A DNA stretch of 64,000 nt from an uncultured Actinomycetota bacterium. GTDB lineage: Bacteria; Actinomycetota; Actinomycetes; DATJPE01. Of this stretch, positions 17,006 to 62,488 are shown one piece after another. A model generated the notes under the pieces. The model saw only the letters and a list, made by a program, of their open reading frames with translations. It was not told the DNA's origin and searched no databases. Where the stretch lies: NCBI GenBank assembly GCA_963819985.1, contig CAWFYH010000002.1, positions 385,404 through 449,403 on the forward strand. The letters run 5' to 3'. Position numbers and translations under genes: made by a program. The first letter of the stretch is position 1. The number at the start of each line of letters is the position of its first letter.

Positions 17006-17910
17006 GCGGCATCCCGTGGGGCTGCTGAGCGGAAACGCAGCGCGGCGGCCGCGCCGACGAGGAGCACGAGGACACCCCCCAGCAGGACCCCGAGTGGCGT
17101 TCCCGACGACGACCCGCCGGCAGGAGGCGGGGCGGCTCCGACAGCGAGCGCCGGGCCGCTGGAGTCCGGACCAGCGCTGGCCGTCGCTGGGCCGTCGGTG
17201 GCCGAAGGTGATGGTGTAGGCGTAGCAGCCATCTTGGTAGATCGGGCTTTCGAGCCGGTTCCTTCGGTGCTCGGCGAGGTGCGGGAGGCGGTCGGGCTCT
17301 TCATGGTCGAGGAGGATGTTGGTGCCGGTGACTTGGTCGGCCCGCTCTTCGTAGGCGCCGGTTTCGGTGTCGGGCTGGAGGCCTTGACCACGACGCCGCA
17401 CTCGTCCGCGGGGTAGCCCGACAACCCGCAGACCAGACCGCTGCTGAGGCGTGGCTGGTAGCCGGCCGTGGTCAGTGCGGTGAGGCCCCTGCTGCCGTCG
17501 GGTACTACCGCGCACGTGCCTCGTACACCTCCCGGAGGCGACTCTCCGGGCGGGGAGTCAGCTGCCGTGCCGTAGTCGACGACGACGGCCACGCGATCCT
17601 TGCCCGCCGGTCGGGGGGTCTTCCCGCAGATGGTGTTGAACGCGTTTCCCACGGACACCCTCGGCTGGGGAGCCTGCGGGTTCGGCGCAGCAACGACGAA
17701 GCGCCAACCTTCGACGCTCCCGTCGTCTACGGAGTGTCCAGCAGGTCCTAGAGGCCCGTAGGTCCAGGCCGCCTCGGACGGGTTGGCATACCAATAGCTC
17801 CAGTAGCGAAAGCCCGACGCCGCTTCCGCTGGGGCAGCCGCAATCACCATCCCGGCGACGGCGAGCGTGGAAGCGACGATGGTTGCGACGGCCGCCCGGC
17901 GGGCGTTCAC
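17002..17910 (-). CDS. Secreted Cys-containing protein with S/T/P-rich stalk and C-terminal TM anchor, function unknown (first of two surface proteins in the B12-riboswitch operon)
   Basis: GTG start at 17910 gives the signal peptide VNARRAAVATIVASTLAVAGMVIAAAPAEAAS. The mature domain (about 150 aa) has 4 Cys and the motif GFRYWSYWYA. It is followed by a PT/S-rich linker and a hydrophobic C-terminal segment LGVLLGGVLVLLVGAAAAL plus a basic tail. Confidence 0.6.
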   Translation of the reverse strand: MNARRAAVATIVASTLAVAGMVIAAAPAEAASGFRYWSYWYANPSEAAWTYGPLGPAGHSVDDGSVEGWRFVVAAPNPQAPQPRVSVGNAFNTICGKTPRPAGKDRVAVVVDYGTAADSPPGESPPGGVRGTCAVVPDGSRGLTALTTAGYQPRLSSGLVCGLSGYPADECGVVVKASSPTPKPAPTKSGPTKSPAPTSSSTMKSPTASRTSPSTEGTGSKARSTKMAATPTPSPSATDGPATASAGPDSSGPALAVGAAPPPAGGSSSGTPLGVLLGGVLVLLVGAAAALRFRSAAPRDAA

Positions 17911-19247
17911 GCCCCAGTCGCCTCCCCGTTGTGGCGTCGGCGGGTAGCAGCGATGAGCACCGCCCCTGATCCAACGAGTGCGATGCCACCCAGGATGACC
18001 AGCGGATTGGTTGCTCCGGTATCGGGCAGCCCCGGATCGCTGCTTCTCTCCGCTGGTGCCGGGGACGTGCTCGTGGTCGGCTTCGGTGTCGGTTGGGCCG
18101 CCGGAGTCGTCATGGTGGCGGCGATGCGTGCGGAAAAGTCTGAGACGTCCTTGCCGAGGGTCGCCCCGGCAACCGCCGCTAGCCCGAGAGCTCCAGGGCT
18201 CTCCTTGGACTGCGCGGCCGACGCTGATCTGCCTGACGAGCGCTGGGTCGAAAACTTGCTTGCCGGTGCCGGACCAAGATCGCTGACCATCGTGGCGTAC
18301 AACGACTCCGCTGCAACGTGACCGGTCCGCGTCGCGGCGAAGCTGAGCACGGCCCACCCCGAGTTTCCGCCGCTCACCGCGTTAGCGGTGACCTGAGTCT
18401 CGAGCCAAGCCGAGCCCCATCCCGCGACGGTGTCCGCAGCTGAGTTGTCGACCGGACAGGTGAAAGCGGGCACCTCGTCGGCCCAGGAGGCAGTAGCAGC
18501 GGGGCCGTCAGCCAAGCTGAGGCCGGCCACTCCCGGGACCGCCTGGACGGTCGAGAGCAGGTCGGGCGCGCCGCCCGAGTACGGCGAAGCGATACCGCCC
18601 TGGTCCTTGCCCGCACCGGAGCAGTCCACCTGAAAGCTGGCGACGTAGTCCACCGCATCCGGGTCGACAGCGGCGCCGTCGGTGCTGCGGGCCATCAGGA
18701 CGAGCCCTGTGGAATTAAGGTCGGAGTCACCACCAGGGATGTACGGCCAGCCGCCGTCCTTGTTGCGTGCATCGGTGAGGAAGCCGAGCGCGGACTCAGC
18801 CTCGGCCTTGTGACCGACGGCGGCGAGGGCCTGCGAAGCGAGCGCTGCGCTGTTGGTGTCCTCGCCGGAGAAATTCACCGGATCCGCTGCGACACATGAA
18901 CCGCTCGGATCCGGATTGAAGGCCATGAAGCCACCGTCGGAGCACTGCTGGTCCAGCAGCCACCGCACCGCGTCATCGGCGGGCCGGTCTCCCGCAGCCA
19001 CGATGCCGAGGATGCCCAGCGACTGCCGGAACACTCCGTCGTAGCTCGGGTCGGCGGTCCCGTACAGACCGACGAGAGCCGGATCGACCTTGGGGGCGGC
19101 CGTCGCGCTGGTGGCCAAGAGCGGCAAGCCGAGCAGGACGGCCGCGAACGCAACTCCCACCGCGGAGGTCCGGCGCACGCGTCGGCTCGGAGCCGCGGAG
19201 CTGCGGTTGAGTTGGTTGAGCTGGTTGAGCTGGTTGAGCTCAGACAC
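17907..19247 (-). CDS. Sortase-anchored (LPDTG) surface protein with prenyltransferase/squalene-oxidase-type alpha/alpha-toroid repeats
   Basis: GTG at 19247 gives VSELNQLNQLNQLNRSSAAPSRRVRRTSAVGVAFAAVLLGLPLLATSATA (signal peptide). The body contains repeated GG(W/F) and QxxDGG(W/F) motifs (QQCSDGGFMAF, NKDGGWPYIPGG) typical of terpenoid-cyclase/prenyltransferase beta-subunit repeats. The C-terminus is LPDTGATNPLVILGGIALVGSGAVLIAATRRRHNGE, a sortase sorting signal. Confidence 0.75.
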   Translation of the reverse strand: MSELNQLNQLNQLNRSSAAPSRRVRRTSAVGVAFAAVLLGLPLLATSATAAPKVDPALVGLYGTADPSYDGVFRQSLGILGIVAAGDRPADDAVRWLLDQQCSDGGFMAFNPDPSGSCVAADPVNFSGEDTNSAALASQALAAVGHKAEAESALGFLTDARNKDGGWPYIPGGDSDLNSTGLVLMARSTDGAAVDPDAVDYVASFQVDCSGAGKDQGGIASPYSGGAPDLLSTVQAVPGVAGLSLADGPAATASWADEVPAFTCPVDNSAADTVAGWGSAWLETQVTANAVSGGNSGWAVLSFAATRTGHVAAESLYATMVSDLGPAPASKFSTQRSSGRSASAAQSKESPGALGLAAVAGATLGKDVSDFSARIAATMTTPAAQPTPKPTTSTSPAPAERSSDPGLPDTGATNPLVILGGIALVGSGAVLIAATRRRHNGEATGA

Positions 19248-19349
19248 TGGTGTGCCTCTCGAGAGCGGTCCAAGGCCTCGCCCGGGAACCCACTCGTGAC
19301 AGCGCCCCCGTCTCGCCGACCGAAGGTCAGACGATGGACAAGGGCGCGG

Positions 19350-19560
19350 ACTCGGGTCTGGGTGACCCGGGCTCCGCCCCGTAGACCTCGACGGTTTAAG
19401 GGAGCCGCTCGCGCCTGCCCAGGTATCCCGGCTCGTCGTCACCCGCGAAGGTGGCGACCTACGGTTGCGGGTCAGCGCCGGAATTCGACCGGACTTCCCC
19501 TGGGCCTGCACGTGTTCAGTTGTGGGCTGACCGTCTCACCTTCGGAGCAGGCGTGTCAAA
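19350..19560 (-). promoter_or_regulatory. Cobalamin (AdoCbl/B12) riboswitch in the 5' leader of the ECF/surface-protein operon
   Basis: The minus strand reads ...GGTGAGACGGTCAGCC...CAGGGGAAGTCCGGTCGAATTCCGGCGCTGACCCGCAACCGTAGG...GACGAGCCGGGATACCTGGGCAGG. This matches the conserved cobalamin riboswitch core (GGGAAgYCGGTGnnAATCCGGCGCnGnCCCGCnACnGT) and a B12-box-like AGCCGGGATACCTGGGC. It is followed by a GC-rich hairpin before the GTG at 19247. Confidence 0.85.
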
Positions 19561-19612
19561 GAACGTCGAGCGGGCCGTGAAACTCGCGCAGGGCTAGGTT
19601 GAGTCAGGTGTT

Positions 19613-21043
19613 GTGGGAGGCCGCGTCGTGACTGGGGACGAGTTGGCGACGGCGTCGGCCGTGGAACTGGTGAAGCAATACCGACGAAGGGCAGTTTCGC
19701 CTGTCGAGGTCGTGGAGAACCTGCTCGCTGGGTGCCTGGCACTCAACCCGAAGCTGAACGCTCTCGTCCTGGTCGATGAGGAGCTTGCCCTTGAACAAGC
19801 TCGAGCCGCCCAGGATCGCTATCGCCGCGGCAACCCACGCGGTCCCCTGGATGGGGTGCCAGTGTCGATCAAGGATGTGCTCTTGACGTCGCGCTGGCCA
19901 ACCCGACGAGGGTCGGCCAGCCTTCCTCCGGCTTCTCCCGCGCAGGTCGACGCACCCTCTACCGCCCGATTGCTCGAAGGTGGTGCCGTGACCTTCGGCA
20001 AGACAACCACGCCGGAGCTCGGCTGGAAGGCCGTCACGGATGGACCGGCCGGCCCGCCAACGCGCAATCCATGGAATCTCGAACTCACGACCGGTGGCTC
20101 GAGCGGTGGCGCGGCCGCCTGTGTGGCCGCCGGTCTCGGACCGATCGCGATGGGCTCTGATGGAGGGGGCTCGATCCGGATCCCGGCAGCATTCTGCGGC
20201 GTTGCCGGCCTGAAAGCCTCCTATGGCCGCATCCCGGTGTGGCCACCGAGTCTGTTCGGCGACGTCTCCCACGCCGGCCCATTGGCGCGGACGGTGGACG
20301 ACCTGGTGGCGGCGCTGCACGTACTCGAGGCACCAGACGAGCGCGACCGAACCTTCCCCGCCCACCTATACCCGTCCGTGTCGTACGACCTGCCACCGCG
20401 AAGCTTGCAGGGGGTGCGAGTCGGTGTCCTGAATCCTCTTCCGTCCGTCACCGATCCGCAGGTGGCTGCCGTGTTCGGCGATACCGTCGCAATTCTTCGC
20501 GACGCCGGTTCGGTGGTGTCAGAGGTACGGGTGTCGTTGGACGGCGTCGTCGATTCGTTCAAGACCTTGTGGTTCAGCGCTTTGGCGAGGTTCGTGGACG
20601 AGCTGTCGGTCGAGACCATCGGTGGCATGGATCCGCAGCTCGTCGAATGCGCGCGAGCAGGTCGGGGCATGTCAGCGATCGAGCGTCAATCCGCAACCGA
20701 GCGCCGGGCCCGACTTTGCCGAGATGCGGCGCTTGTCTTCGACGACGTCGACGTCCTGGTCATGCCCACCGTTCCCATCTGCGCATTCGAGGCAGGACGC
20801 GATGTTCCCGACACCTCTGGCATGCAGTGGTGGCCGGACTGGACGCCGCTCACGGTTCCCTTCAACCTCACCGGACAACCCGCGGTCTCGGTTCCCGCCG
20901 GCTTCGACCACGCGGGACGGCCGATCGGACTGCAGCTCGTCGGGCGGTTCGGCGACGACGCAAACCTGCTGGCGATCGCTCGCTCCTACGAGCTCGCTCG
21001 CGGGTCCCTGCCGCCACCACCAATCCGTAGGCTCCAGCCATGA
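19613..21043 (+). CDS. Amidase signature (AS) family amidase
   Basis: AS signature GGSSGGAAACVAAGLGPIAMGSDGGGSIRIPAAFCGVAGLKASYGRIP with the catalytic Ser-cisSer-Lys region. Confidence 0.85.
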   Translation: MGGRVVTGDELATASAVELVKQYRRRAVSPVEVVENLLAGCLALNPKLNALVLVDEELALEQARAAQDRYRRGNPRGPLDGVPVSIKDVLLTSRWPTRRGSASLPPASPAQVDAPSTARLLEGGAVTFGKTTTPELGWKAVTDGPAGPPTRNPWNLELTTGGSSGGAAACVAAGLGPIAMGSDGGGSIRIPAAFCGVAGLKASYGRIPVWPPSLFGDVSHAGPLARTVDDLVAALHVLEAPDERDRTFPAHLYPSVSYDLPPRSLQGVRVGVLNPLPSVTDPQVAAVFGDTVAILRDAGSVVSEVRVSLDGVVDSFKTLWFSALARFVDELSVETIGGMDPQLVECARAGRGMSAIERQSATERRARLCRDAALVFDDVDVLVMPTVPICAFEAGRDVPDTSGMQWWPDWTPLTVPFNLTGQPAVSVPAGFDHAGRPIGLQLVGRFGDDANLLAIARSYELARGSLPPPPIRRLQP

Positions 21044-21252
21044 CGTGGACATGGCGGTTTGAAACAGCCGATGGCGCGGCGTTGCCGGCCACCGACGAGC
21101 GACCCGAGCCTCCGAGCTTCCCGACTCAGGCTGACGCCGAAAGCTGGATCGGCGAAGCCTGGCGAGAGTTGCTGGACGGCGGCGTCGACCAAGTAACCCT
21201 GCTGGAGGAAGCGACGGTTGTTTACGGGCCGATGAGTCTGCATCCGTCCTGA
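21040..21252 (+). CDS. Small hypothetical protein (70 aa), translationally coupled to the amidase
   Basis: ATGA overlap with the amidase stop. Acidic, ordinary composition and no motif. Confidence 0.35.
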   Translation: MTWTWRFETADGAALPATDERPEPPSFPTQADAESWIGEAWRELLDGGVDQVTLLEEATVVYGPMSLHPS

Positions 21253-21318
21253 GGGCACCCGCAGGTGGCCCGCTCTTCTAGACGAGTCGGTTGGCCAGGG
21301 TCGGCTTTCCCAGGATTG

Positions 21319-22314
21319 TCACGGTCGGTCGCTGGGACTCTGCGTCTTGGCCGGATCGCGCTCCACGACCGGACCCACGACCTCGTCGATCGCTCCTAGG
21401 AGGTCGTCGTCGAGGGTGACTCCTGCAGCCTTGACGTTCTCAGTCACCTGTTCGGGACGTGAAGCCCCCATGATGGCTGCCGCGACGTTGGGATTCTGGA
21501 GCACCCAAGCAACGCCGAGCTGAGCCATCGTGAGGCCGGCCTGCTCGGCCAACGGACGCAGTTGCTGCACGCGGGTGAGGACGTCGTCGGTGCGGTAGTC
21601 ATCGAGATAGTCGGCCGACTTGGGTGCAGCGGCTCGAGATGCCTCGGGGGGAGGCTGCCCGGGCAGGTACTTCCCCGTGAGAACTCCCTGGGCCAACGGA
21701 CTCCACACGATCTGGGACAGCCCGAGCTCCTCGCACGTGGGCACGACCTCGGCCTCGATGACCCGCCAGAGCATGGAGTACTCCGGCTGGTTGCTGACCA
21801 ACGGAACGTGCAGCTCGCGGGCCAGCTCCGCCGCGGCGCGGATCTCCTCCGCTCGCCACTCCGAGACCCCGATGTAGTGCGCCTTGCCGGCGCGCACGAT
21901 GTCAGCGAAGGCGACCATCGTCTCCTCGAGCGGCGTGCGGTAGTCGTATCGGTGCGCCTGGTAGAGATCGACGTGATCGGTCTGGAGTCGTTCGAGGGAA
22001 TGGTCGATCGAAGCCAGAATGTGCTTGCGGGACAGGCCCCGGTCGTTGACCCCATCGTTCATCGGCCAATAGACCTTCGTGAAGATCTCCAGGCCCTCGC
22101 GTCGCTCGCCGGATAGCGCCTTGCCGAGCACGGTCTCCGCGCGGCCGGTGGCATAGATGTCCGCGGTGTCGAAGGTGGTGATCCCGGAGTCGAGCGCCGC
22201 TCTGACACACGCGATGGCTGCGCCGTCGTCGATCTGGGACCCGTGGGTGACCCAGTTGCCGTAGGCGATCTCGCTGATCTGCAGGCCGGAACGGCCGAGG
22301 TATCGATGCTCCAT
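21319..22314 (-). CDS. Aldo/keto reductase family oxidoreductase
   Basis: N-terminus MEHRYLGRSGLQISEIAYGNW...DTADIYA is the AKR signature. Length 331 aa. Confidence 0.85.
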   Translation of the reverse strand: MEHRYLGRSGLQISEIAYGNWVTHGSQIDDGAAIACVRAALDSGITTFDTADIYATGRAETVLGKALSGERREGLEIFTKVYWPMNDGVNDRGLSRKHILASIDHSLERLQTDHVDLYQAHRYDYRTPLEETMVAFADIVRAGKAHYIGVSEWRAEEIRAAAELARELHVPLVSNQPEYSMLWRVIEAEVVPTCEELGLSQIVWSPLAQGVLTGKYLPGQPPPEASRAAAPKSADYLDDYRTDDVLTRVQQLRPLAEQAGLTMAQLGVAWVLQNPNVAAAIMGASRPEQVTENVKAAGVTLDDDLLGAIDEVVGPVVERDPAKTQSPSDRP

Positions 22315-45802: not shown

Positions 45803-45994
45803 GATCCACCACGCGGTCGCGACCAAACCGACGGCGGCTGGCGCGGAATCGTCGCTCTCCCGGGTGACGACGGTGTGGCAGGTTTGATTCCGGCCCCGCT
45901 GGTGGCTACTGTGCTCGCGGATGTCGGTTCGACGCCTCTCGCCCGAGAGGCATCCGGCGTCTCCGCTCAATCCGATGTGAACGAGCTCCATCGC

Positions 45995-46135
45995 CTAGGT
46001 GGCGGAGTCCGCGAGCAACGGAACCGGGGAACCATGTTCCTGGGGTGAATCACCGGCGATCCGTCGCCGGAGTAGGGCGACTTCCCCGCCCGAACCCGTC
46101 AGCTCACCCGGTAGGCGGTCGAGGAAGAGGAGAGC
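45995..46135 (+). ncRNA. ydaO/kimA-type cyclic-di-AMP riboswitch in the leader of the NlpC/P60 hydrolase gene
   Basis: Contains CGGGGUGAAUC, GUAGGGCGA(N)UCCCC and GCCCGAACCCGUCAGCUCACCCGGUAGGCGGUCGAGGAAGAGGAGAGCC. These are near-identical to the conserved ydaO elements (CCGAACCCGUCAGCUAACCucGUAAGCG...GAGGAG). An SD GAGGAG lies 10 nt before the GTG at 46143. Confidence 0.85.
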
Positions 46136-52091: not shown

Positions 52092-52301
52092 CTATGAACA
52101 GGCCTGCGGCGCGGTGGCGATGCTGTTGGTGCCGATGTCCTCACAGTTGGAGTCGTACACGGCGCCCGCCACGGCGAAGGTCGCGAAGACGATGCTCACG
52201 CAGACGGCGACGATGCCGGCGACCAGCAGGGCGTACTCGACAGCGGTCGCACCCTGGTCGCGGGCGGCGAGGAGTTGGCGCAGTCGGGTCATGCCCGCCA
52301 T
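52092..52301 (-). CDS. Flp-family type IVb pilin (copy 3)
   Basis: M(AGM)TRLRQLLAARDQGATAVEYALLVAGIVAVCVSIVFATFAV. The start is at the MAGM or MTRL methionine. Confidence 0.75.
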   Translation of the reverse strand: MAGMTRLRQLLAARDQGATAVEYALLVAGIVAVCVSIVFATFAVAGAVYDSNCEDIGTNSIATAPQACS

Positions 52302-52347: not shown

Positions 52348-52998
52348 TCAACGTATCCCTCCGGCCGGTCCGTCCTGAGTGATGAGGCCCAGACGCAGGG
52401 CCGACATGAGCGCCTGGGCTCGGTTGGCTGCGCCGAGCTTCTCGTAGAGCTTGGAGATGTGGGTCTTGGTCGTGGACTCGCTGATGTAGAGCTGCTTGGA
52501 GATCTGGGCCACTCCGAGGCCGTCGGCGAGCAGCTGCAGCACCTCCTTCTCGCGAGGCGAGAGCTGAGGTCCACTCGGAGCCAAGCGGCGTTTCATCGCC
52601 TCGGCCAGGTCGTTGGCGGTGAAGGCTTTGGGGGACGCCGCCGCGTGCCGAGCAGCAGCGAGTACGTCGTCCGTGGGCGCGTCCTTGGGCACGAACGCGC
52701 TCGCGCCTGCGTCAAGCGCGCCGAACAGCTGCTCGTCGCCGGCATACATGGTGAGGACAACCAGGCCGATGTCGGCGCGCTCCTTGCGGATCGCCCGCAC
52801 CAGATCGAGGCCGCTGCCGTCCGGCAGCCGTACGTCGATCACCATGACATCGGGACGCATGCCGGCATGCTTGCGCAGCGCCTCGTCGATCGACCCGGCC
52901 TCGCCCAGGACATCGAAGTCCTCGCTGCGCTCGAACGCCCTGCGCAGGCCCTGGCGGATCAGCTCGTGGTCGTCAACGAGCAGCACCGTCGTAGGCAC
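52348..52998 (-). CDS. NarL/LuxR-family response regulator
   Basis: REC domain (VLLVDDHELIRQG, DVMVIDVRLPDGSG) plus a LuxR HTH (LSPREKEVLQLLADGLGVAQISKQLYISESTTKTHISKLYEKLG). GTG start with an AAGGGAGAG SD. Overlaps the HK gene end. Confidence 0.85.
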   Translation of the reverse strand: MPTTVLLVDDHELIRQGLRRAFERSEDFDVLGEAGSIDEALRKHAGMRPDVMVIDVRLPDGSGLDLVRAIRKERADIGLVVLTMYAGDEQLFGALDAGASAFVPKDAPTDDVLAAARHAAASPKAFTANDLAEAMKRRLAPSGPQLSPREKEVLQLLADGLGVAQISKQLYISESTTKTHISKLYEKLGAANRAQALMSALRLGLITQDGPAGGIR

Positions 52999-54652
52999 CG
53001 GCTCTCCCTTCGTTGGTCCCCTCAATAGAAGGACGCGGTGGCGGCCCTCCGATGACGACGTCCACGACGGTGCCACCGTCGTCGCGTGGCTCCACGCTCA
53101 ACGTCGCGCCTATCCTTGTTGCTCGTTCACGCATGATTTCAAGACCGTAGCTGTCCGAGCGTCCCGCACCGAGACCCTCTCCGTCGTCCTCGACACGCAG
53201 GAGGGCCGTAGGTGGGGCGATTCGGCAGGTTACCCACAGGTTCTTGGCCCGAGCATGCTTGCGCACATTCGTGATGGCCTCTTGGGCGATTCGCAGCATC
53301 TCGGCCTCGGTGTCCGCCCGCAGGCGGCTGGGCGACTCATCGAGCACCAGGTGGACCGTGAGGGGCGAGGTTGCGCCGATGCCTCGGGCGTAGTCGGACA
53401 GGGCTGCCCCCAACCCCATGGTTGGCTGGACCTCGCTGCGGAGGTCGAAGATGGAAAGGCGCAGCTCGCTGATGATCCGGGTGAGCTCGTGGCGGAGTTC
53501 TTGGAGCTGCTGGCGTTGCTCTTCGTTGTCTGCGCGGTAGGAGAGGTCGTCGACCGCGTAGCCGAGCGAGGCGAGCTCCTGCGCGATCCCGTCGTGGATC
53601 TCCCGAGCAAGTCGACGTCGCTCTTCGGCCGTAGCGATCGACCTGACCTCGGAGAAGAGCAAGGCCGTCTCCAGGCGCAGTGCCCCATCGGCGACCGCTG
53701 CGGCTCCTTCATCGAGCTGTTCCTCGGTGAAAGCGGCTTCGGTGCGCTCAATTCCTACGAGGCCGATTGTGCGCACTCCTACCCGGAGCGGTAGGACGGC
53801 TGAGTAGCCGCCTGACCCGGCTGTGAACGTTCCTTGGCGGCGTTGGGGGTGGCCAGTGGTCCAGGCCTCTGCCCAGGCGGAGTCGTCGTCGAGCGCAGGG
53901 GTCCAGTCCGCCCGGTCGACCCCGGCGAACGCCATCGGCACCAAGCGACCGCCTTCAGAGCGCACATAGACCGCAGCGCGGGAGAAGAACACTCCAGAAC
54001 GGAGACTCTGGAGCATCCCCTGGGACAACGAGACAGGGTCGAGCCCGCCGGACAGCTGCCGCGAGACGACCCGCAGCTGCGACAGGAGTCGATAGGCGGC
54101 CGTGTAGGAGGACTGGCTGGCTTCGATCTGTTGGTCGCGCACCCGGCGGACCCAGGCGGCCAGCAGGCCCAAGGCGAGGGCCAGCACGATCCACTGTGAG
54201 ACGTAGGTGATGTAGTTGCGAACGTCCTCGGGCGGTTCGTTCGCCACGCCAGCAGCGACAAAGACCGCAGAGGACAGCCCGGTGACCAGGATCACCGCGC
54301 TCACTCCTCCGACCAGGCCGGCCTCCAACGCCGGCGCGGCCAGATACGGCAGCAGGGCGGACGAAAGCTCGCCGTTCCCCGCGATCAACCAGGTGGCTGC
54401 CACCGCCTCGACCACGGGTCTCCACCAGGTCACCACAGCGCTCCGGACCGGGATCGAGGCGAGCACCGCGATGAGCAGCAGCCCCAACAGCGCCCCCGGC
54501 TTGGCGTCCGCCGTGCCATCGATGATGGCCAACCCGAGACACAGGCCATAGACGACCGCGCGTCCGACCACCGCCACCAGCGGCAGGTCGGACAGCGACC
54601 TCGGGCGTCCCTCCACCCCCCAAGGGTCGCAGACGTACGCCGAATCCCCCAT
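52973..54652 (-). CDS. Sensor histidine kinase, NarL-partner type (HisKA_3 plus HATPase_c), multi-TM N-terminus
   Basis: About 5 N-terminal TM helices. H-box EIHDGIAQELASL (HisKA_3). ATPase domain with N and G boxes (...EAITNVRKHA..., DDGEGLG). Start at MGDSAYV. Confidence 0.85.
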   Translation of the reverse strand: MGDSAYVCDPWGVEGRPRSLSDLPLVAVVGRAVVYGLCLGLAIIDGTADAKPGALLGLLLIAVLASIPVRSAVVTWWRPVVEAVAATWLIAGNGELSSALLPYLAAPALEAGLVGGVSAVILVTGLSSAVFVAAGVANEPPEDVRNYITYVSQWIVLALALGLLAAWVRRVRDQQIEASQSSYTAAYRLLSQLRVVSRQLSGGLDPVSLSQGMLQSLRSGVFFSRAAVYVRSEGGRLVPMAFAGVDRADWTPALDDDSAWAEAWTTGHPQRRQGTFTAGSGGYSAVLPLRVGVRTIGLVGIERTEAAFTEEQLDEGAAAVADGALRLETALLFSEVRSIATAEERRRLAREIHDGIAQELASLGYAVDDLSYRADNEEQRQQLQELRHELTRIISELRLSIFDLRSEVQPTMGLGAALSDYARGIGATSPLTVHLVLDESPSRLRADTEAEMLRIAQEAITNVRKHARAKNLWVTCRIAPPTALLRVEDDGEGLGAGRSDSYGLEIMRERATRIGATLSVEPRDDGGTVVDVVIGGPPPRPSIEGTNEGRAGAYDGAAR

Positions 54653-55748
54653 GTTGACGCCCGCCGAACGGGTGAGCGGCGGGTGGGCCGTGCGGCGTGT
54701 CTTCGAGCATTCCCCCCCGAGAGCCGCCGCACTTCGCCAGACTGCTCGGGTGGAACAACTGCGCGCACTCAGCGAGGTCCTGAGCACGTCCGACGGTCAG
54801 CTCAGCGCCGGGAAGTCAGCCGCAGCTCGGGTGTGGGGGACTGGTTTCGAGCCCCTCGACGCCTATCTCAACGGTGGGTTGCGGTCGGGCGAGCTCACGC
54901 TCGTCGGCGGGCCCCAGGGTTTGGGCAAGACGACCTGGGTGTTGCAGTTGATTCGCAACGTCGTGGCCGCTGGCCAGCCGGCGCTGTATTTCTCCTACGA
55001 GCACGACGCGCCACTCATTCTCGAGCGCGTCCTTGCCGTCGAGGCTGGCCTCCAGCTGGGGGTCGAGGCTCTGCCGCTCAAGCGCATCCGCGAGGCCATG
55101 GAGGCGGGGGACGGCCGCAGCGGCACGCTCGCCGAGCGTTTGCGGGAGACCCACGGCGGCGCGGAGGCCGTTCGCGCTGTCCAGGCGTGGGGTGATCGGC
55201 TGTTCGTCCACCGCTCCAGCGGCACGACGACGAGCATCGAGGTCATCCGGGACGCTGTGGAGCAGGTGCGTTCGGCATCGGGGGCACAGCCGCTCGTCGT
55301 CGTCGACTACCTGCAGAAGGTCGCCATGCCGGGTGGCCCGGAGTTCGAGGACGAGCGCGTCACCTCCACCGTGGAGGCGCTCAAGGACCTGTCCCTGGAT
55401 GCGGACGTGCCCGTTGTGGCCATCGTGGCCGCCGACCGGGAGGGCATCGCCTCGGGTCGCCGACTTCGCACTCACCACCTGCGGGGTTCCTCGGCGCTGG
55501 CCTACGAGGCCGATGTGGTGCTGCTGTTCAACGACAAGTACGACGTTGTCGCGCGCCACCACCTCATCTATGACGTCAGCAACGCGGAGCGGTTCCGTAA
55601 CTTCGCGATCATGTCGATCGAGAAGAACCGCAACGGCCTCGACCACATCGACCTGGAGTTTCGTAAGCGCTTCGAGCAGGGGCGCTTCGAGCCAGATGGT
55701 CGCGTCGTGTCCGAGCAGCTCGTCGACGAGCGCGTCTACGTCGAGTAG
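54651..55748 (+). CDS. KaiC/RecA/DnaB-C-terminal-domain-like P-loop ATPase (single domain)
   Basis: Walker A GGPQGLGKTT, Walker B LVVVDYLQK, and a RecA-like core. The start is uncertain: the ATG at 54651 overlaps the divergent HK start codon. Confidence 0.6.
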   Translation: MLTPAERVSGGWAVRRVFEHSPPRAAALRQTARVEQLRALSEVLSTSDGQLSAGKSAAARVWGTGFEPLDAYLNGGLRSGELTLVGGPQGLGKTTWVLQLIRNVVAAGQPALYFSYEHDAPLILERVLAVEAGLQLGVEALPLKRIREAMEAGDGRSGTLAERLRETHGGAEAVRAVQAWGDRLFVHRSSGTTTSIEVIRDAVEQVRSASGAQPLVVVDYLQKVAMPGGPEFEDERVTSTVEALKDLSLDADVPVVAIVAADREGIASGRRLRTHHLRGSSALAYEADVVLLFNDKYDVVARHHLIYDVSNAERFRNFAIMSIEKNRNGLDHIDLEFRKRFEQGRFEPDGRVVSEQLVDERVYVE

Positions 55749-55767: not shown

Positions 55768-55815
55768 AGTTGGTAGACAGAACGGGCGCTCTAGCGCCCG
55801 TTCTGCCTACCAACT
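55768..55815. repeat. 48-bp palindromic element, copy 1 (23-bp inverted arms)
   Basis: AGTTGGTAGaCAGAACGGGCGCT-CT-AGCGCCCGTTCTGCCTACCAACT. One mismatch between the arms. Lies between the convergent KaiC-like and DUF559 genes. Confidence 0.85.
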
Positions 55816-56853
55816 GATCTGGAGGCCGAGGGCCCGCGCCAGCCGACGCGCGACGCCTGCGGGGTCGCATCGCAGAGCTGAAGCGGCGACGCGCACGACG
55901 AGGGCGTCCTCTGCGATGGCCAGGTCGCTTTGTCGGTCCATGTCATCCCACCAACGCAGGGCGTCGAGATGGACGCCACCATCGACCTCGAGGTGGACCG
56001 CTCGTCCATCGGCACGGCGGTACCACCCGTCCAGGTAGCGCCGACGACCTTTGGAGTCTCGACGTACCCCCTGCCGGAGGGGTTGAGGCAGGCCGTAGCG
56101 GGAGCTCAGCTGGGACAAGTCGAGCTCAGCCATCGACTGAACGCCGCCCTCCGCGTCGATCAGCAGTCGGCGGAGCGCCTTGCTGTGCCGAATTTGACCC
56201 GCTGTGTCGAGCACGTCGAGTAGACCGTCGATGCGTACCAGACGCTGCTGAATCGCCGCCAGGACAAGCCCGCAGGCCTGGCGGCGATTGCGCGTCCAAC
56301 TAGCGGCGTCGACGACCGCCCGCTCCGGCCGCACGATCGGCAGAGCCCGGCTCGGATGCCGATTCTCCTCCCTCAGCCGCCGAGACACGTGCACCCTCAT
56401 CCAGGGCAGCGATCGAGTACGGCATCCGTGGCCCACCACCACGTGGACGGTGTCACGTTCGAACCCGCGAAGCCCCCAGACCTCCGCTGCAGTCCACGCG
56501 CACACCAGCGCCCCAGAGCCAGCGTGAGTGACGGCCACCCAGCAGCGCGTCTCCTGGCTGAGCGGCCCGCGATGCAGCACGACAGCACGACCGACCAGTC
56601 GCCACCGCCGCGCTCGGAGATGGTCGCGAAGCTGATGACGATTCACACCAACGCTCGCCAACTGTTGTCGGCTAAGGACACCTGCTTGTTGGTCGGCCAG
56701 ATCTGCAACATCTTGATTGGGGAGCGCTGACAGTGGCCGCGACAGCAGCCACGAACCCTGAGGCAGAGCGTCTGGAGCAAGCTGCCAACCGACTGTCATG
56801 GCAACACTTTGGGCCAGTCCGAGGCAGTACGGCGCCCTGTCCACAGCCCGCAT
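55807..56853 (-). CDS. DUF559 domain protein (Vsr/restriction-endonuclease-like fold), with N-terminal AbiEi-like region
   Basis: C-terminal RYLDGWYRRADGRAVHLEVDGGVHLD...RQSDLAIAEDALVVRV matches the DUF559 pattern. The gene is flanked by identical palindromic repeats. Confidence 0.65.
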   Translation of the reverse strand: MRAVDRAPYCLGLAQSVAMTVGWQLAPDALPQGSWLLSRPLSALPNQDVADLADQQAGVLSRQQLASVGVNRHQLRDHLRARRWRLVGRAVVLHRGPLSQETRCWVAVTHAGSGALVCAWTAAEVWGLRGFERDTVHVVVGHGCRTRSLPWMRVHVSRRLREENRHPSRALPIVRPERAVVDAASWTRNRRQACGLVLAAIQQRLVRIDGLLDVLDTAGQIRHSKALRRLLIDAEGGVQSMAELDLSQLSSRYGLPQPLRQGVRRDSKGRRRYLDGWYRRADGRAVHLEVDGGVHLDALRWWDDMDRQSDLAIAEDALVVRVAASALRCDPAGVARRLARALGLQISW

Positions 56854-56949: not shown

Positions 56950-59561
56950 TCAGAGGCCGTAGTCGATGCGTTCGGCAGCCGCTCGGTCGTCCTGGTCGCG
57001 TAGGTCGCCAAGCACCCGAGAGAGCTGTCGTGCATCCAACGCCGCGCTCAGGATGTCCGCGGATGCCTCGGCCAGTCGGGCGAGACTGAGCAGGTCCCGC
57101 TCGGCGAATGGCGGATCATCGTCGCGGGCGATGAGCAGGATGCCGCCCACAGCGCGCACTGGAGCCGCCACGAGATGTTTGTGGGACGCGAGCGGGGCAC
57201 CGGCCAGCGGCAGCCGCGCCACGTCGGTGCGGTCGATGATGACCCCCTTGTGGCGGCTGGCGATGGTGGTGACCAGCCATGCGTCACCTTGGAGCACGAA
57301 GCGATGCTCCAGCCGTCGCAGACCTTCCCCGGCGGCTACCCGCCAGACGTCTCCGTCGGGCAGCAGGAGGGCCCCGGCCGTGGCGTTCGTGCGGGCGAGA
57401 GCGTCGCTGACGACGAGCGAGCCGGCCTCGATGACACCGTAGACCTCGTGACTGCGGCCAAGCAGGGCACGTACGAGCGCCGGCGTGGACCGTGGATCAT
57501 CCGGCATCGAGTCGCGCAGGTCAACGACCGAAACTGACGTAGGAATGGGGCTTGGGCCTGACGCGTCGAAATGGGTCATGGGGACCGTCGGCGGATCCAG
57601 CTCGGGGACCACTGGCGGCACCGAGTTGGGCGCGTCGCGCCAGTCCTCCAGCGGCGCCTGGCCGGCGCCTGGCCTCCCGCCAGGCGCCTTGAAGACCTGG
57701 CTGAGATCGACCGTCGGGGTTTCGTCTCTGTCACTCGGCGCCAGCGAGTTGGCGAACGCGGAGCTTGGCTCGGGTGCCGTGATCGGGCCAAGGTCTTCAG
57801 ACATCAGGTCAACGGATGCGAAGCGCAGCGAAGCCATTTCGGCGTAGACCCCAGCGCGCTGTGTCGGCGTCGGGGTAGCTGCTGGCTGTTGGGCTTCAGT
57901 CGTGGTGGATTCGAGGACGTAGCTTGCAGCTGGGGCGACCACGACCACGGGCTCGGTGTCTTTGGGTTCCCAGGATGACGGAGCGGGCTCATCCAGCGGT
58001 GGCTCCGACGCAGGGACAGGTGCCGGGACAGCGGACTTGGCGTTGGCCTTGGCAGCGGCGGCACGAGTCCGCTTGCGCTTGGCCGGTGCTCGCGCGGGGG
58101 CAGCCTCCGCAGGCACCTCGGTGTCGATGGCCTCCGCCGTTGCTGACTCTTCAGCAGTGGCTGGTTCGGCGTGCGTTGCAGTGGCGTACGGCTCGTCCGC
58201 GGGTTCGAGGTCGGCCACTGTGTCGGGAATCGCGGCGAGGCGGTCTTCTTCAGCAGCGCGGGCTTCCTCGGCTGCGAGGCGCTCTTGTTCGACACGGACT
58301 TCTTCTGCGACACGGACTTCTTCTGCGACGCGAGCTTCTTCGGCGGCCGTTCTTCTTCGGCGAGGCGTTCAACTTCGAGGCGACCTTCTTCGGCGAGGCG
58401 TTCTTCTTCGGCGAGGCGTTCTGCTTCGAGGCGGGCTTGTTCGGCGAGGCGTTCTTCTTCGGCGAGGCGTTCTGCTTCGAGGCGGGCTTGTTCGGCGAGG
58501 CGTTCTTCTTCGGCGAGGCGTTCTGCTTCGAGGCGGGCTTGTTCGGCGAGGCGTTCTTCTTCGGCGAGGCGTTCTGCTTCGAGGCGGGCTTGTTCGGCGA
58601 GGCGTTCTTCTTCGGCGAGGCGTTCTGCTTCGAGGCGGGCTTGTTCGGCGAGGCGTTCTTCTTCGGCGAGGCGTTCTGCTTCGAGGCGGGCTTGTTCGGC
58701 GAGGCGTTCTTCTTCGGCGAGGCGTTCTGCTTCGAGGCGGGCTTGTTCGGCGAGGCGTTCTTCTTCGGCGAGGCGTTCTGCTTCGAGGCGGGCTTGTTCG
58801 GCGAGGCGTTCTTCTTCGGCGAGGCGTTCTGCTTCGAGGCGGGCTTGTTCGGCGAGGCGTTCTTCTTCAGCCCGCCGCGCTGCTTCGGCTTCGAGGCGCT
58901 CTTGTTCGAGGCGAGCTTCCTCTGCTAGCCGTTCCTTTTCGAGGCGAGCCTCTTCAGCGGCGCGGGTCGAAGCCTTGTCCTGCTCAGGCGGGGCAGCCTT
59001 GGATCGTCGGCCGAACCGGCGACCTTTGGCAGCCGGTTTCCCTGAAGCTTTCGACTTCGACTTCGACTTGGCCGCATGGCCTGCAGCGGACTGCTGCGGG
59101 TCAGCAACGGGTTCCTCAGGCGCCGCCTCGGGTGGCGCCGCGAGCGGTGCTTCAATTCGCAGCGAGCTGCCAGATGCGCCCTCGCCAACAGCCGCGCCAG
59201 GCTCCATACCCACCTGAGGCAAGGACTGGGCTGTGCCAACAGAGGTGCCGAGCCGGTCCTGGGTAATCGGCGGGTCGAGCACCGCGACCGACGGCCGACT
59301 GCTCGGGTCGAAGGCGTCCCACTCTCCGTGCTTGGACGCCACCAGCAGGGCCGGAGCGGTGAGGCCCTTGTCTCGAAGCATGTCCAAGGTCGCCACGGCA
59401 TCGGCTGGGAGTTCCTGCTCGATCACGACCACGTCCGCCATCCCCGGCGTGATCTCAAGCTTCCCGATCAGGGTGGGGCGCACCTCGATGATTTCATCTG
59501 CGGCGGCACCCAGTCCGAACGACAACGACGGGTTTCGCGCGATGAGGAGCAGGCAGGTCAT
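56950..59561 (-). pseudogene. Large Tad-locus-associated protein: N-terminal about 95-aa domain, ER/K-rich tandem-repeat region (9 x 17 aa), degenerate ER repeats, Ala/Pro-rich linker and C-terminal GAF-like domain; apparent 1-nt frameshift near 58340-58370
   Basis: Frame 1 (ORF 57804..59561) encodes [13 protein letters not shown]... then ([17 protein letters not shown])x9, and becomes R/P/S-rich nonsense after about 58350. Frame 2 has no stop from 58368, continues with a degenerate ER repeat ([38 protein letters not shown]), and runs through ORF 56950..58218 with a GAF-like C-terminal domain (GVIEAGSLVVSDALARTN...GGILLIARDD). Together these indicate a single disrupted or mis-assembled gene. 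Confidence 0.5.
58370..58900 (-). repeat. Nine near-identical 51-nt tandem repeats encoding an ER/K-rich single-alpha-helix-like motif
   Basis: Plus-strand unit GTTCTTCTTCGGCGAGGCGTTCTGCTTCGAGGCGGGCTTGTTCGGCGAGGC is repeated head-to-tail. All six frames are open across it, which explains the stacked ORFs in the track. Confidence 0.9.
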
Positions 59562-59565
59562 GCAC

Positions 59566-60510
59566 TCACCCGATCGCGAAGAGATTTTGCAGGATGTTGA
59601 TCGCGGCCGGACCGAGGATAACCACGAACAGGGACGGCAGGATGCAGAAGATCAGCGGGAACAAGATCTTCACCGGCACCTTTTGAGCGGCCTCCTCAGC
59701 GCGCTGCGAGCGCTTGATCCGCATCTCCTTGGCCTGGATCCGCAGGACGTTGGCGATCGGTATACCGAACGCATCCGCCTGGACCATCGCGGTGGCAAAC
59801 TGCCGCAGGTCGGGCAGATTGGTGCGCTCGCCCATGGCTCGAATCGCTTCGGTACGGCCGACGCCGATCTGCATCTCCTGCAAGACACGGAAGAACTCGG
59901 CAGCGAGGGGTCCCTCGCTGTTCTTGGCAACCTGCGCCAAAGCTCCGTCGAAGGACATGCCCGCTTCAACGGAGATCGTCAGCAGGTCGAGCGCGTCCGG
60001 GAGCTCACGGCGCATCCGCTCGGTGCGCTCGTAGGCCATCTGGTAGAGGATCACGTTCGGAGCGAAGAATCCGCCGGCAGCGCCAAGCGCGATCACGCCG
60101 AGCGTGACGACGAAGCTCCAACCAAAGAGCAGCGAGAACGCGGTGGCGACCAAGGATCCAGAGATCAGGCCCAGCATCTTGAAGGCCAGCACGCGCTCGA
60201 CGTCCCAACCCTCGGGGCTGCCGGCCAGGTCGAGCTGCCTACGGATGCCGGTCTTCTGACCCTCTGCGGTGAGTTTGCCGCCGCCCTTGGTGAGCCGAGC
60301 GAACAACGGATTGAACACCCGGTCCGCGAACGATTGATCCAGCTCGGCGCGCACCATCGACTGAGGAGCATTGTTGATCGCCTCGACGGCAGCCAGTGAC
60401 CGACCCACGCCGGTGCGTCCCGTGCTGACGACCCCGAAGGCCAGCAGCAGCAGGACGACTCCGAGGAAGATCCCCCCGAGACCAAGGATGAGCTGCAGTG
60501 TCGAATCCAT
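59566..60510 (-). CDS. tadC: Tad pilus inner-membrane platform protein TadC (GspF-like)
   Basis: T2SSF-like domain with 3 TM helices. 314 aa. Adjacent to the TadB and TadA homologues. Confidence 0.8.
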
Positions 60511-60511
60511 G

Positions 60512-62488
60512 TCAGACCTCCACCTGCACGACGCGCCGTAGCCAGAAGATGCCGACGACCAACATGAAGGCGCCGAAGCCGAGCAGCAGCAGGCCGAGCG
60601 CCGTTGTGTAGAGCGGCTCGAGGTAGCTCGGCCTCACCAGGATCAAGAAGACGGCGAACAGAATGGGAATCAGGGCGATGATGACGGCAGACAGTCGTCC
60701 TTCGGCGGAGAGCACCTGGACCTGACGGCGCAGCCGTTCCCGTTCCCGCAGGGTTGCGGCAACAGTCGTCAGCACTTCGGCCAGGTTGCCACCGACCTCT
60801 CGTTGCACCCGGATGGCAAGGACGACCCAGTGGAAGTCTTGAGAGTTCATCCGATCGGCGATGTTGTCGAGGGCCTCCTCGATGGGGACGCCGAGCCGGG
60901 CCTCCACCAGAGCCCGGTTGAACTCCACCGACATCGGCTCGTTGCCCTCGCGGACGATGGTGTCGACAGCCTGCGGGAGCGAATAGCCGGCGGACAGGGA
61001 TCCGGCCAACAGCTGCAAGGTGTCTGGGAGCTGTGCGTAGAAGGCTGCCTGACGGCGCGACTCCTTGACCTTGAGATAGGTCCAGGGAAGCACGACTCCG
61101 AGGGTCAGACCGACCAACGCGGCCATCAGTCGTCCACCGGTCAGCAGCAGCAGGAGCAGCGCGCTGCCGATGGCGATCCCGACGTGGACCAGCGCCCATT
61201 CTCCGGGTTTCAGTGGCAGCCCCGCAGCCTCGAGACGCCGTTCGAGCAGGTCCTCGACATCACGGCTGCGCACCGCCTTGTCGGCCAGGTCGACAGCAGA
61301 CCGAGCAACTTGGGTGTCGCCCAGCGCCGTGCTTGTGGTCTCGGCCTCCTTGCGCATCGTCCGACCACCGAGGGTGTAGATCGACATCCGGCCGCGCACG
61401 GTGTTGGTGCGCTTGCGTCCGGCTCGGATGAAGGCAACAGCAAGCATCAGGGCGACACCGACGAAGATTGCGGCCAGGCCGAGCCATAGCCATGTCTCGT
61501 CAACGCGGTCATAGAACGCCGGTGCCGACACCGGGATCGGGCCGGATCCTTCCGCAACGGTGTTCTCGCCTGAACCTTGTGGCGCCCCAGGGAGGGGCAC
61601 AAACGCGGTGTCGGTGATCGTCGTCTGCCCGGCCACGGCCGAAACCGAAACGGTGCTCCCGGTGCTGGCCAGCTCAGGGGGCACGGTGACCGTGACCCGA
61701 AGCTGGTTGTCGAGCGCCCGCGCGCTGGCGGCGAACGATGCCGCCAACTCCGCCGCTCCGCTGGCCTCCACGACCTTGCCGCCGGTAGCCGAGGCCATCG
61801 TCGTCAGAGTTTTCAGTTGGGCCTCGGTGGTGCTCAGCGCGACAGCGTCGAGGGTGACCCCGGAAGAGGCGACGTCGTCGGTGGCCTCTTTGAGGGACGC
61901 CCGACTGCGGGTGTCGGAACCGTCGCTCAGCAACAGGATGCTCCGGACACCAGTCTGTCCGGCTGTCTCCGCGGACTTGACGACCGCGTCGTAGAGCGCC
62001 GTGCCCCCCTTGGCCTCAAGGTTGTCGATCGCTTGGGTGATCGCGCCGTGGTCCAGAGTCGGCGCGACCAGCACGGACACCTTGTCGTTGAACGAGACCA
62101 GCCCGACCTTGACGTCCTTTGGAGCTGTCGTGACGTAGGTGTCGGCTGCCTCCTTGGCGGAGGCGATGCGTTCACCCTTCATCGAGGTCGAAGTGTCGAT
62201 TGTCAGCACGGCCGTACGGTCGACTGGCGTGAGCCCACCGATCAGCGCGGCGGTGGACGCGACCGGGGTGCCGTCGATGCTGACCTGAACCGACGCGGGG
62301 TCGAGGCTGGCGCCTTCTGGCAGGTCGGAGGCCGAGAAGACCAGGGTGACCGTGCCGTCGTCTCCCGGCTTGACCTCACTGATCCGACCTACCGGATCGG
62401 CGGCGGCCGGCCCGACCACGACTACGGATAGGGCCAAGGCGGCCGCCACAGCCGTCAGTCGTCCCCCACGGGTGAGCAGGCTGGTCAT
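60512..62488 (-). CDS. tadB: Fusion protein: secreted von Willebrand factor A (vWA, MIDAS) domain plus TadB-like (GspF) membrane platform domain
   Basis: Signal peptide, then a vWA domain with the MIDAS motif DTSTSM and LLLSDGSDT, then an Ig-like/linker region and a TM helix. The C-terminal 300 aa resemble TadB/GspF, with TM helices at the end. Confidence 0.7.
   Translation of the reverse strand: MTSLLTRGGRLTAVAAALALSVVVVGPAAADPVGRISEVKPGDDGTVTLVFSASDLPEGASLDPASVQVSIDGTPVASTAALIGGLTPVDRTAVLTIDTSTSMKGERIASAKEAADTYVTTAPKDVKVGLVSFNDKVSVLVAPTLDHGAITQAIDNLEAKGGTALYDAVVKSAETAGQTGVRSILLLSDGSDTRSRASLKEATDDVASSGVTLDAVALSTTEAQLKTLTTMASATGGKVVEASGAAELAASFAASARALDNQLRVTVTVPPELASTGSTVSVSAVAGQTTITDTAFVPLPGAPQGSGENTVAEGSGPIPVSAPAFYDRVDETWLWLGLAAIFVGVALMLAVAFIRAGRKRTNTVRGRMSIYTLGGRTMRKEAETTSTALGDTQVARSAVDLADKAVRSRDVEDLLERRLEAAGLPLKPGEWALVHVGIAIGSALLLLLLTGGRLMAALVGLTLGVVLPWTYLKVKESRRQAAFYAQLPDTLQLLAGSLSAGYSLPQAVDTIVREGNEPMSVEFNRALVEARLGVPIEEALDNIADRMNSQDFHWVVLAIRVQREVGGNLAEVLTTVAATLRERERLRRQVQVLSAEGRLSAVIIALIPILFAVFLILVRPSYLEPLYTTALGLLLLGFGAFMLVVGIFWLRRVVQVEV

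Follow-up and report, generated by a model that had tools for sequence, protein, structure and literature searches.

A receiver-linker-GAF gene at the end of an actinobacterial tad operon, split by a one-base frame break that is probably an assembly error

The window analyzed here is a stretch of 64,000 nucleotides (nt) from an uncultured Actinomycetota bacterium, and the gene under study occupies positions 59561 to 56950 on its minus strand. The segment forms one gene and closes a tadZ-tadA-tadB-tadC pilus operon as its final cistron, although as assembled it is divided between two reading frames. With one base restored it encodes a protein of 870 amino acids (aa), which begins with an atypical receiver domain and continues through a disordered stretch, acidic repeats rich in Glu, Arg, Ala and Leu and a linker rich in Pro and Ala to a GAF domain at the C-terminus, five parts in all. 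The frame break is best explained as a consensus error of a Nanopore-only metagenome assembly, i.e., the gene would be intact in the organism itself; we put the probability of this explanation at roughly 0.6. The outline of the gene (56950..59561) is drawn from the open reading frames (ORFs), from the reconstruction with one base restored and from the orthologue in the closest related locus, referred to here as L004.

As assembled, the span from 59561 to 56950 is 2612 nt long, i.e., 2 modulo 3, and it is covered by two ORFs. ORF A (59561-57804, minus strand) begins with an ATG and has 585 aa; ORF B (58218-56950, minus strand), which is called from a GTG at 422 aa, lies partly over ORF A, in a different frame, and is GAF-like in sequence at its end. 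In a three-frame translation, frame A proceeds to the residues ERLAEEER and then turns into junk, while frame B carries repeat-type sequence that runs on into the GAF domain and ends at the stop at 56950. The switch from one frame to the other lies between GAACGG and CCGCC, the plus-strand equivalent of which is the CGGCGGCCG run. Nucleotide alignment with L004, together with the three-frame translation, places the break between positions 58348 and 58347 of the minus strand, where one C is absent. That is, in a short alignment at the break the window reads GAACG-GCCGCC where L004 reads GAACGCGCCGCC, a difference of a single C. The longer alignment around the break, in which GAAGAAGAACG-GCCGCCGAAGAAGC in the window is paired with GAAGAAGAACGCGCCGCCGAACAAGC in L004, likewise differs by one base. 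The two forms to be compared are GAACGGCCGCC, which lacks the C and is found in the window, and GAACGCGCCGCC, which has the extra C. Aligned with L004, the missing C falls within CGCGCC, and no homopolymer is present at this position. A sequence-only reading of the window had put a one-nucleotide switch at this very boundary, in the GC-rich CGGCGGCCG run, and had described the second frame as a degenerate repeat followed by a GAF-like domain; the position (58348/58347) and the order are both confirmed, the repeat by translation and the GAF domain by a structure model.

The orthologue that allows this comparison belongs to L004 (MFD05442.bin.1.346), whose protein is 98% identical in amino-acid sequence over the GAF region. 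The flanking genes of L004 share 86-89% nucleotide identity with those of the window, and L004 is therefore assigned, from sequence identity, to a different (sister) species. Directly after tadC it carries an intact ORF of 908 aa, with the N-terminal domain, a 51-nt repeat array, a linker and the GAF domain in that order. An intact orthologue beside a tad locus, which the sequence-only reading had proposed to look for, is thus at hand, and its view of a single gene with a 1-nt indel at the repeat boundary is supported. Consistent splitting of the orthologues into two genes, which would have told against that view, is not what we find: L004 is intact, and 120 of the 159 family members that were retrieved have both domains in one chain.

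Comparison with L004 also indicates that both halves of the gene are under purifying selection. The ratio of nonsynonymous to synonymous substitution rates (dN/dS) is 0.012 for the GAF domain at a dS of 0.83, which amounts to an extreme constraint, and 0.11 for the N-terminal domain. In the linker it is 0.22, with an amino-acid identity of 70%.

The case for an assembly error is built on the close relatives of the window, all of which are "MFD" metagenome-assembled genomes (MAGs). The MFD MAGs were assembled from Nanopore reads only, using Flye and one round of Medaka (PMC12313526). In L001, one of these relatives, 5% of the repeat array consists of indels and the frame hops at least 8 times, while tadZ, tadA, tadB and tadC of the same locus are intact. 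The array of L002 likewise has 5% indels, and L016 and L017 are broken throughout, whereas the copies read in assemblies outside the MFD set are intact. In L005, the only frame break in a 35-copy array of 18-nt units is a 19-nt unit at 4974-4992, GCCGAAGAGAGCCCGCGCC, which is a chimera of the unit variants GAAGAAGCCC and GAAGAGACCC; judged by its sequence, this chimera looks like a typical artefact of consensus building or polishing from misaligned reads. The lengths of the repeat units are multiples of three, so that slippage changes the length of an array and not its frame. The biology of such arrays thus predicts in-frame gain and loss of units, and an excess of +/-1 indels is predicted by assembly error instead.

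Several observations weigh against a consensus error. The consensus of the window is otherwise clean: 10 of the 10 other genes tested match their Pfam models over the full length; among the neighbors, tadB and tadC are intact, as are the genes for the kinase, the regulator and the ATPase; and tadA is unbroken in the part of it that lies within the window. The nine 51-nt units of the array have no indel at all. The base rate of indel errors in the window should therefore be low, and the missing base lies outside any homopolymer. Moreover, the Nanopore origin of the window is itself deduced from its close relatives and from its sole database match, P0001.

These observations are, at the same time, what one would expect of a real and recent deletion of 1 nt, by which the gene would have been split or turned into a young pseudogene in the strain or population at hand. 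In its favor are the lack of broken genes elsewhere in the window, the perfect array free of indels, the site without a homopolymer and the occurrence of the 422-aa downstream ORF in the database as a called protein (P0001). The products of such a deletion may be a receiver-plus-repeat protein with an out-of-frame tail of about 180 aa and, perhaps, a separate linker-GAF protein translated from the GTG at 58218. We consider a real deletion possible, if doubtful. Because selection on both halves, as measured against L004, is strong, any real break would have to be very young, indeed extremely recent; the gene is intact in the sister species; and the related Nanopore assemblies are noisy with indels in exactly this region. 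In addition, no orthologue has a conserved internal start, and the GTG at 58218 corresponds to an ordinary Val codon in L004.

A regulated switch, i.e., phase variation by slippage of the repeats or a programmed -1 ribosomal frameshift, would fit the location of the frame change, which adjoins a highly repetitive and slippage-prone array. We nevertheless reject both forms of it as highly improbable, because the units of 51 and 18 nt are multiples of three, such that slippage keeps the frame; because neither a homopolymer nor a slippery heptamer of the type X XXY YYZ is found at GAAGAAGAACGGCCGCCG; and because the shift is not conserved, being absent in L004 and being elsewhere and of another kind in L005. 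Phase variation, which the sequence-only reading had entertained, is excluded on the same grounds of frame-keeping units and an indel outside any homopolymer. Least probable of all is that a receiver-plus-repeat protein and a separate GAF protein are encoded by two independent abutting genes: the public gene calls for the closest relatives do give C-terminal pieces only, of 221-422 aa, but such pieces stem from indel-ridden long-read contigs in which tadA, tadB and tadC are split as well, clean assemblies have a single chain, and most matches to the family profile cover positions 1-389 in one stretch.

With a consensus error as the preferred explanation of the break, we turn to the repaired protein. 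Its N-terminal domain (residues 1-113; 59223..59561, minus strand) was assigned with AlphaFold2 and Foldseek. From an alignment of 80 sequences, AlphaFold2 models the first 114 residues with a predicted local distance difference test (pLDDT) score of 95.2 as a (beta-alpha)5 fold, in which strand and helix alternate five times. In a Foldseek search of the PDB with this model, every match at E <= 0.001 is a receiver domain, and the atypical receiver domains of CpaE/TadZ (4dad and 4dn6) rank second and third, with E values of about 1e-4. The residues of phosphorylation are absent. In place of the acidic pair after beta1 the window has A-R-N (S/T-R-N in the family); at the phospho-acceptor position it has Glu48, where 59 of the 78 aligned family members have Asp; after beta4 it has Ala75, where receivers have Thr or Ser; and at the position of the Lys after beta5 it has Asp96, with Pro in 48 of the aligned members. 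Pfam gives no match for this domain, Response_reg included, and NCBIfam gives none for either half of the window gene or for six members of the family. The model thus identifies the domain as an atypical or pseudo-receiver, which has the receiver fold and fails the defining catalytic features, and it is probably non-phosphorylatable. The sequence-only reading had correctly noted a small domain at this end of the protein and had not recognized it as an atypical receiver.

The C-terminal GAF domain with its terminal helix (56953..57486, minus strand; stop codon at 56950-56952) was identified in the same manner. AlphaFold2 models the last 203 residues with a pLDDT of 91.4, and Foldseek matches this model to 305 PDB chains at E <= 1e-3; the 50 best of these are all of the GAF type, with a best E value of 9e-8. 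By sequence, the window copy matches Pfam GAF_2 at 20.6 bits and E 5.5e-4, i.e., below the curated cutoff of 28.6 bits, while the family member P0009 just reaches that of PF01590 GAF (22.8 bits versus a cutoff of 22.4). No membrane-spanning segment is found in the repaired protein, whose maximum hydropathy over 19 residues is 1.27. In view of the lack of a hydrophobic segment, the protein is presumably soluble and cytoplasmic. The layout proposed by the sequence-only reading, with a small domain at the N-terminus, then a charged spacer of repeats and finally a GAF domain, in a gene directly downstream of tadC, is therefore upheld.

Between the two folded domains lies, first, a low-complexity segment with a basic patch (58965..59222, minus strand, from the translation of the repaired protein), which leads from the receiver domain to the repeats. 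The region rich in E, R, A and L (58231..58964, minus strand), delimited by composition and sequence, comprises 245 aa, residues 200-444 of the repaired protein. Exact matching and Tandem Repeats Finder both resolve within it nine identical 51-nt units (58404..58862, minus strand), each of which encodes 17 aa; the nine essentially perfect repeats that had been read from the sequence are thus confirmed at 58862-58404. A tenth unit with 5 mismatches follows at 58353..58403 (minus strand, by exact matching). Tandem Repeats Finder reports 10.8 copies of period 51 over 58318-58868, with 97% matches and no indels. The same program, together with translation, reveals an 18-nt mini-array of the AEEVRV type with 4.2 copies (58290..58363, minus strand), which is read in the second frame and resembles the 18-nt AEEARA unit of L005. 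Beyond the repeats, a linker of 248 aa that is rich in Ala, Pro, Glu and Thr (57487..58230, minus strand) begins with a conserved motif of 20 residues and, given its composition, is likely disordered.

Three other views of the repetitive DNA were set aside. ORFs on the plus strand across the array (e.g., 57956-59266) were rejected as by-products of a repeat that is free of stop codons. A CRISPR or another non-coding repeat was rejected as well, since the units are arranged head-to-tail with no spacers between them and a conserved ORF encloses the array. Lastly, a frame plot of GC content by codon position is dominated by the composition of the repeat, and the frame change near 58350 is only loosely visible in it.

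The repeat region consists of 35% Glu, 24% Ala, 18% Arg and 15% Leu (Arg and Lys together 18%) and has a net charge of -42; if it formed one continuous alpha-helix, its length would be about 37 nm. It has 0.43 pairs of opposite charge at i/i+3 and i/i+4 per residue, and three leucines per 17 residues, whose spacing of about 5.7 does not produce a single hydrophobic seam. On account of these pairs and of leucines without a seam, the label of a single alpha-helix is plausible; against it count a charge that is far from balanced and the richness of the region in Leu and Ala.

In most members of the family the linker is rich in proline, and arrays rich in Glu, Arg and Ala are confined to the small clade of the window, where the unit is specific to each species. 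Among 120 two-domain representatives, the linker is the variable part of the protein, with a median of about 82 residues and a maximum of 931, and its composition is 18% Pro and 15.5% Ala; none of the 120 has an E/R-rich linker. Within the clade, the window has 10.8 copies of its 51-nt unit, L004 has 11.5 copies of a 51-nt unit with 100% matches, L005 has 35 copies of the 18-nt unit (AEEARA), L002 and L006 have about 31 copies of a 27-nt unit (AEEAETARL), and L001 has about 100 copies of a degenerate, Ala/Glu-rich unit of 6 nt. The 51-nt units of the window and of L004 differ at 5 of 51 positions, and each difference is fixed across all copies of its own array, the signature of concerted evolution. 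The uniformity of the array in each genome is maintained by unequal recombination or by slippage, both of which preserve the frame. The 51-nt array is a clade-specific replacement of the proline-rich linker that is usual in the family.

The extent of the family emerged from a full search with a hidden Markov model (HMM) over 1.84 billion cluster representatives, which recovered 401 representatives at E <= 1e-3, 215 of them at E <= 1e-30. A word-indexed search with the N-terminal domain gave a single match, such that the full HMM search was needed, and one with an alignment of 83 sequences gave few new members, named only "hypothetical protein" or "CheY-like chemotaxis protein". Among homologues of the C-terminal half, P0007-P0011 each consist of one chain (377-495 aa), in which an N-terminal domain that can be aligned to the start of ORF A is followed by a linker rich in Pro, Ala and Glu and by the same GAF region. 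A scan of species-representative genomes provided seven loci, all from MAGs of Actinomycetota or Frankiales. No model in Pfam or NCBIfam spans the whole receiver-linker-GAF protein, and in the literature on Tad with GAF domains and on atypical receivers with TadZ we found no description of such a family. The component domains themselves are of known kinds, but neither the complete family, nor its constant location in Tad loci, nor the exchange within one clade of a proline-rich for an internally uniform, E/R/A-rich linker is described in Pfam, in NCBIfam or in the literature searched. The sequence-only reading had called the architecture beside tadC unusual; with 401 representatives and a fixed gene order it belongs to a conserved family, and only the E/R-rich array is peculiar to the clade.

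In every locus with readable neighbors, the gene order is (tadE-tadG-)rcpC-tadZ-tadA-tadB-tadC followed by the receiver-GAF gene, where tadB includes a von Willebrand A (VWA) domain. Beyond the receiver-GAF gene come a KaiC/DnaB_C-like ATPase on the opposite strand, a HisKA_3 kinase that often includes a GAF domain, a regulator of the LuxR type and finally flp, as one gene or two. Flanking by tadC on one side and by the ATPase, kinase, LuxR and flp genes on the other was seen in 6 of 6 sequence-distinct loci whose neighbors were read. L001, L002, L004, L005, L011, L012, L013 and L014 all have the gene directly behind tadC and in the same orientation, as does the window once it is repaired; ORFs and Pfam matches show the conserved order in the window as well. 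There, tadC, which encodes a T2SSF platform protein (59566..60510, minus strand; Pfam T2SSF, E 9e-20), is separated from the receiver-GAF gene by very little: the ATG at 59561 lies 4 nt past the tadC stop codon, and in relatives the start codon overlaps that stop. Such spacing suggests that the receiver-GAF gene is co-translated with the platform proteins.

The other genes of the locus in the window are as follows. TadB (60512-62488, minus strand, 658 aa) carries the VWA domain as an N-terminal fusion, behind a signal-like hydrophobic start; the VWA-T2SSF fusion also occurs in L001, L012, L013 and L014. The ATPase (54651..55748, plus strand) is a single-domain member of the RecA superfamily, of the KaiC/DnaB_C-like kind, with Pfam matches to DnaB_C, AAA_25 and KaiC and PDB sequence matches to RecA, DnaB and KaiC. 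Its counterparts lie at 9162-10169 in L001, 3619-4689 in L011, 12400-13395 in L013 and 4511-5512 in L014; outside the MFD MAG set it is conserved beside the receiver-GAF gene in 5 of 5 fully read loci, and it is present in the relatives of the window clade too. Pfam matches and ORF translations assign a GAF-HisKA_3-HATPase histidine kinase and a LuxR-type response regulator to 52348..54787 (minus strand). The longest ORF of the kinase starts with a GTG at 54787 (604 aa) and overlaps that of the divergent ATPase (ATG at 54651) head-to-head by 137 nt; since the kinases of relatives have only 527-567 aa, the true start of the kinase is probably further downstream. A Flp pilin (about 52092-52301, minus strand), recognized by its GATAVEY motif (QGATAVEYALLVAGIVAV), is encoded just downstream of the LuxR-type regulator, a position that matches that of the flp genes in related loci. 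Between the GAF gene and the ATPase lies an AbiEi-like gene (55807-56853, minus strand, 348 aa) with a weak match to an AbiEi antitoxin-type helix-turn-helix (E 2.6e-4). L004 is without it: only about 100 nt separate the end of its GAF gene (6591) from the aligned ATPase region (from 6699). The AbiEi-like gene is therefore an insertion of about 1.1 kb specific to the window.

Elsewhere in the window, an ORF that extends on the plus strand as far as 47225 has a cyclic di-AMP riboswitch (45991-46132, plus strand; Rfam RF00379, 78.9 bits, E 1e-16) at its 5' end. A partial cobalamin riboswitch (19422-19499, minus strand; Rfam RF00174, 36.9 bits, model positions 46-168) is contained in a segment of about 5 kb, 16052-21319, in which a crude filter detects no ORF of 100 aa or more with the usual pattern of GC by codon position; no rRNA match was found within this segment.

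As to the function of the receiver-GAF protein, it could serve as an adaptor or regulator with two tethered heads. One of them, the receiver-like head, might dock on a cytoplasmic Tad component, or on the neighboring ATPase or kinase, a role suggested by other pseudo-receivers, which act as docking modules. The GAF head would bind a small ligand or a partner GAF domain, such as that carried by the adjacent kinase, and the linker would set the reach between the two heads. In this way, pilus assembly or the expression of flp might respond to a cytoplasmic signal. It weighs against this proposal that its mechanism is drawn from domain identity, operon position and gene order. With regard to the ATPase, its KaiC-like character recalls ArlH, a regulator of the archaellum motor. 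The archaellum motor is related to the Tad motor, and the conserved ATPase could, by analogy, be a regulator comparable to ArlH. In its most far-reaching form, which we regard as speculative and on balance unlikely, the hypothesis is that the receiver-linker-GAF family constitutes an unrecognized regulatory subunit of actinobacterial Tad pili, which, jointly with the divergently encoded KaiC-like ATPase, the GAF-containing kinase and the LuxR regulator, would make flp expression or assembly responsive to the state of the pilus machine. Its hypervariable linker would then be a spacer of tunable length, from 30 to more than 900 residues, and the clade of the window would have given up a flexible, proline-rich tether in favor of acidic helices that are stiff, internally uniform and rapidly evolving and whose length is particular to each species.

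The gene is, firstly, a case in point for the annotation of long-read MAGs: it looks "frameshifted", yet neither a pseudogene nor a pair of separate genes should be annotated. In Nanopore-only assemblies, tandem repeats draw +/-1 indels. Secondly, it provides a lead to a conserved, unnamed and unstudied component of Tad loci, in which an atypical receiver and a GAF domain are combined beside a KaiC-like ATPase and a two-component system. Thirdly, the linkers form a natural length series: most are proline-rich, and in one clade three species have perfect E/R/A repeats, with units of 6, 9 or 17 residues. This series could be used to ask whether the length of the tether matters in pilus regulation.

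Compared with known systems, the GAF domain shares its fold with bacterial signaling GAF domains such as those of PtsP (3ci6/3trc) and DosS/DosT/DevS (2w3e/2vzw/2vks), with target TM-scores (template modeling scores) of up to 0.75. The sequence identity to these domains is only 12-23%, however, with the window copy under the Pfam threshold, and, unlike those signaling proteins, the window protein has no attached enzymatic or DNA-binding output domain. With the atypical receivers of TadZ/CpaE (4dad and 4dn6), which are pseudo-receivers, the N-terminal domain has in common the (beta-alpha)5 CheY-like fold, the lack of the canonical phosphorylation residues and the location in a Tad operon. Unlike TadZ/CpaE, the window protein is not fused to a ParA/MinD ATPase, and related loci have a separate tadZ. 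The Foldseek scores of the N-terminal domain against TadZ/CpaE are no better than those against ordinary receiver domains, and hhalign detects no sequence relationship between the family alignment and the TadZ of L001 (probability 0.2%).

The repeat region, for its part, invites comparison with two kinds of spacer. Single alpha-helix spacers of the ER/K type are those of myosin VI/X and caldesmon. Like them, the window repeat is long and contains much Glu and Arg, and it has the density of opposite-charge pairs given above (0.43 per residue); unlike them, it is made of perfect tandem DNA repeats, its charge is unbalanced (35% Glu versus 18% Arg and Lys, net -42), and it contains 15% Leu and 24% Ala. 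Bacterial linkers made of tandem repeats under concerted evolution include domain II of TolA and the repeats of surface proteins. The window protein differs from these in having neither a signal peptide nor a membrane segment, in bearing two signaling-type domains and in being encoded in a pilus operon. It resembles them in that its units are identical within a genome and different between species, as in the window and L004, and in that the length of the unit varies among relatives, from 51 to 27, 18 and about 6 nt.

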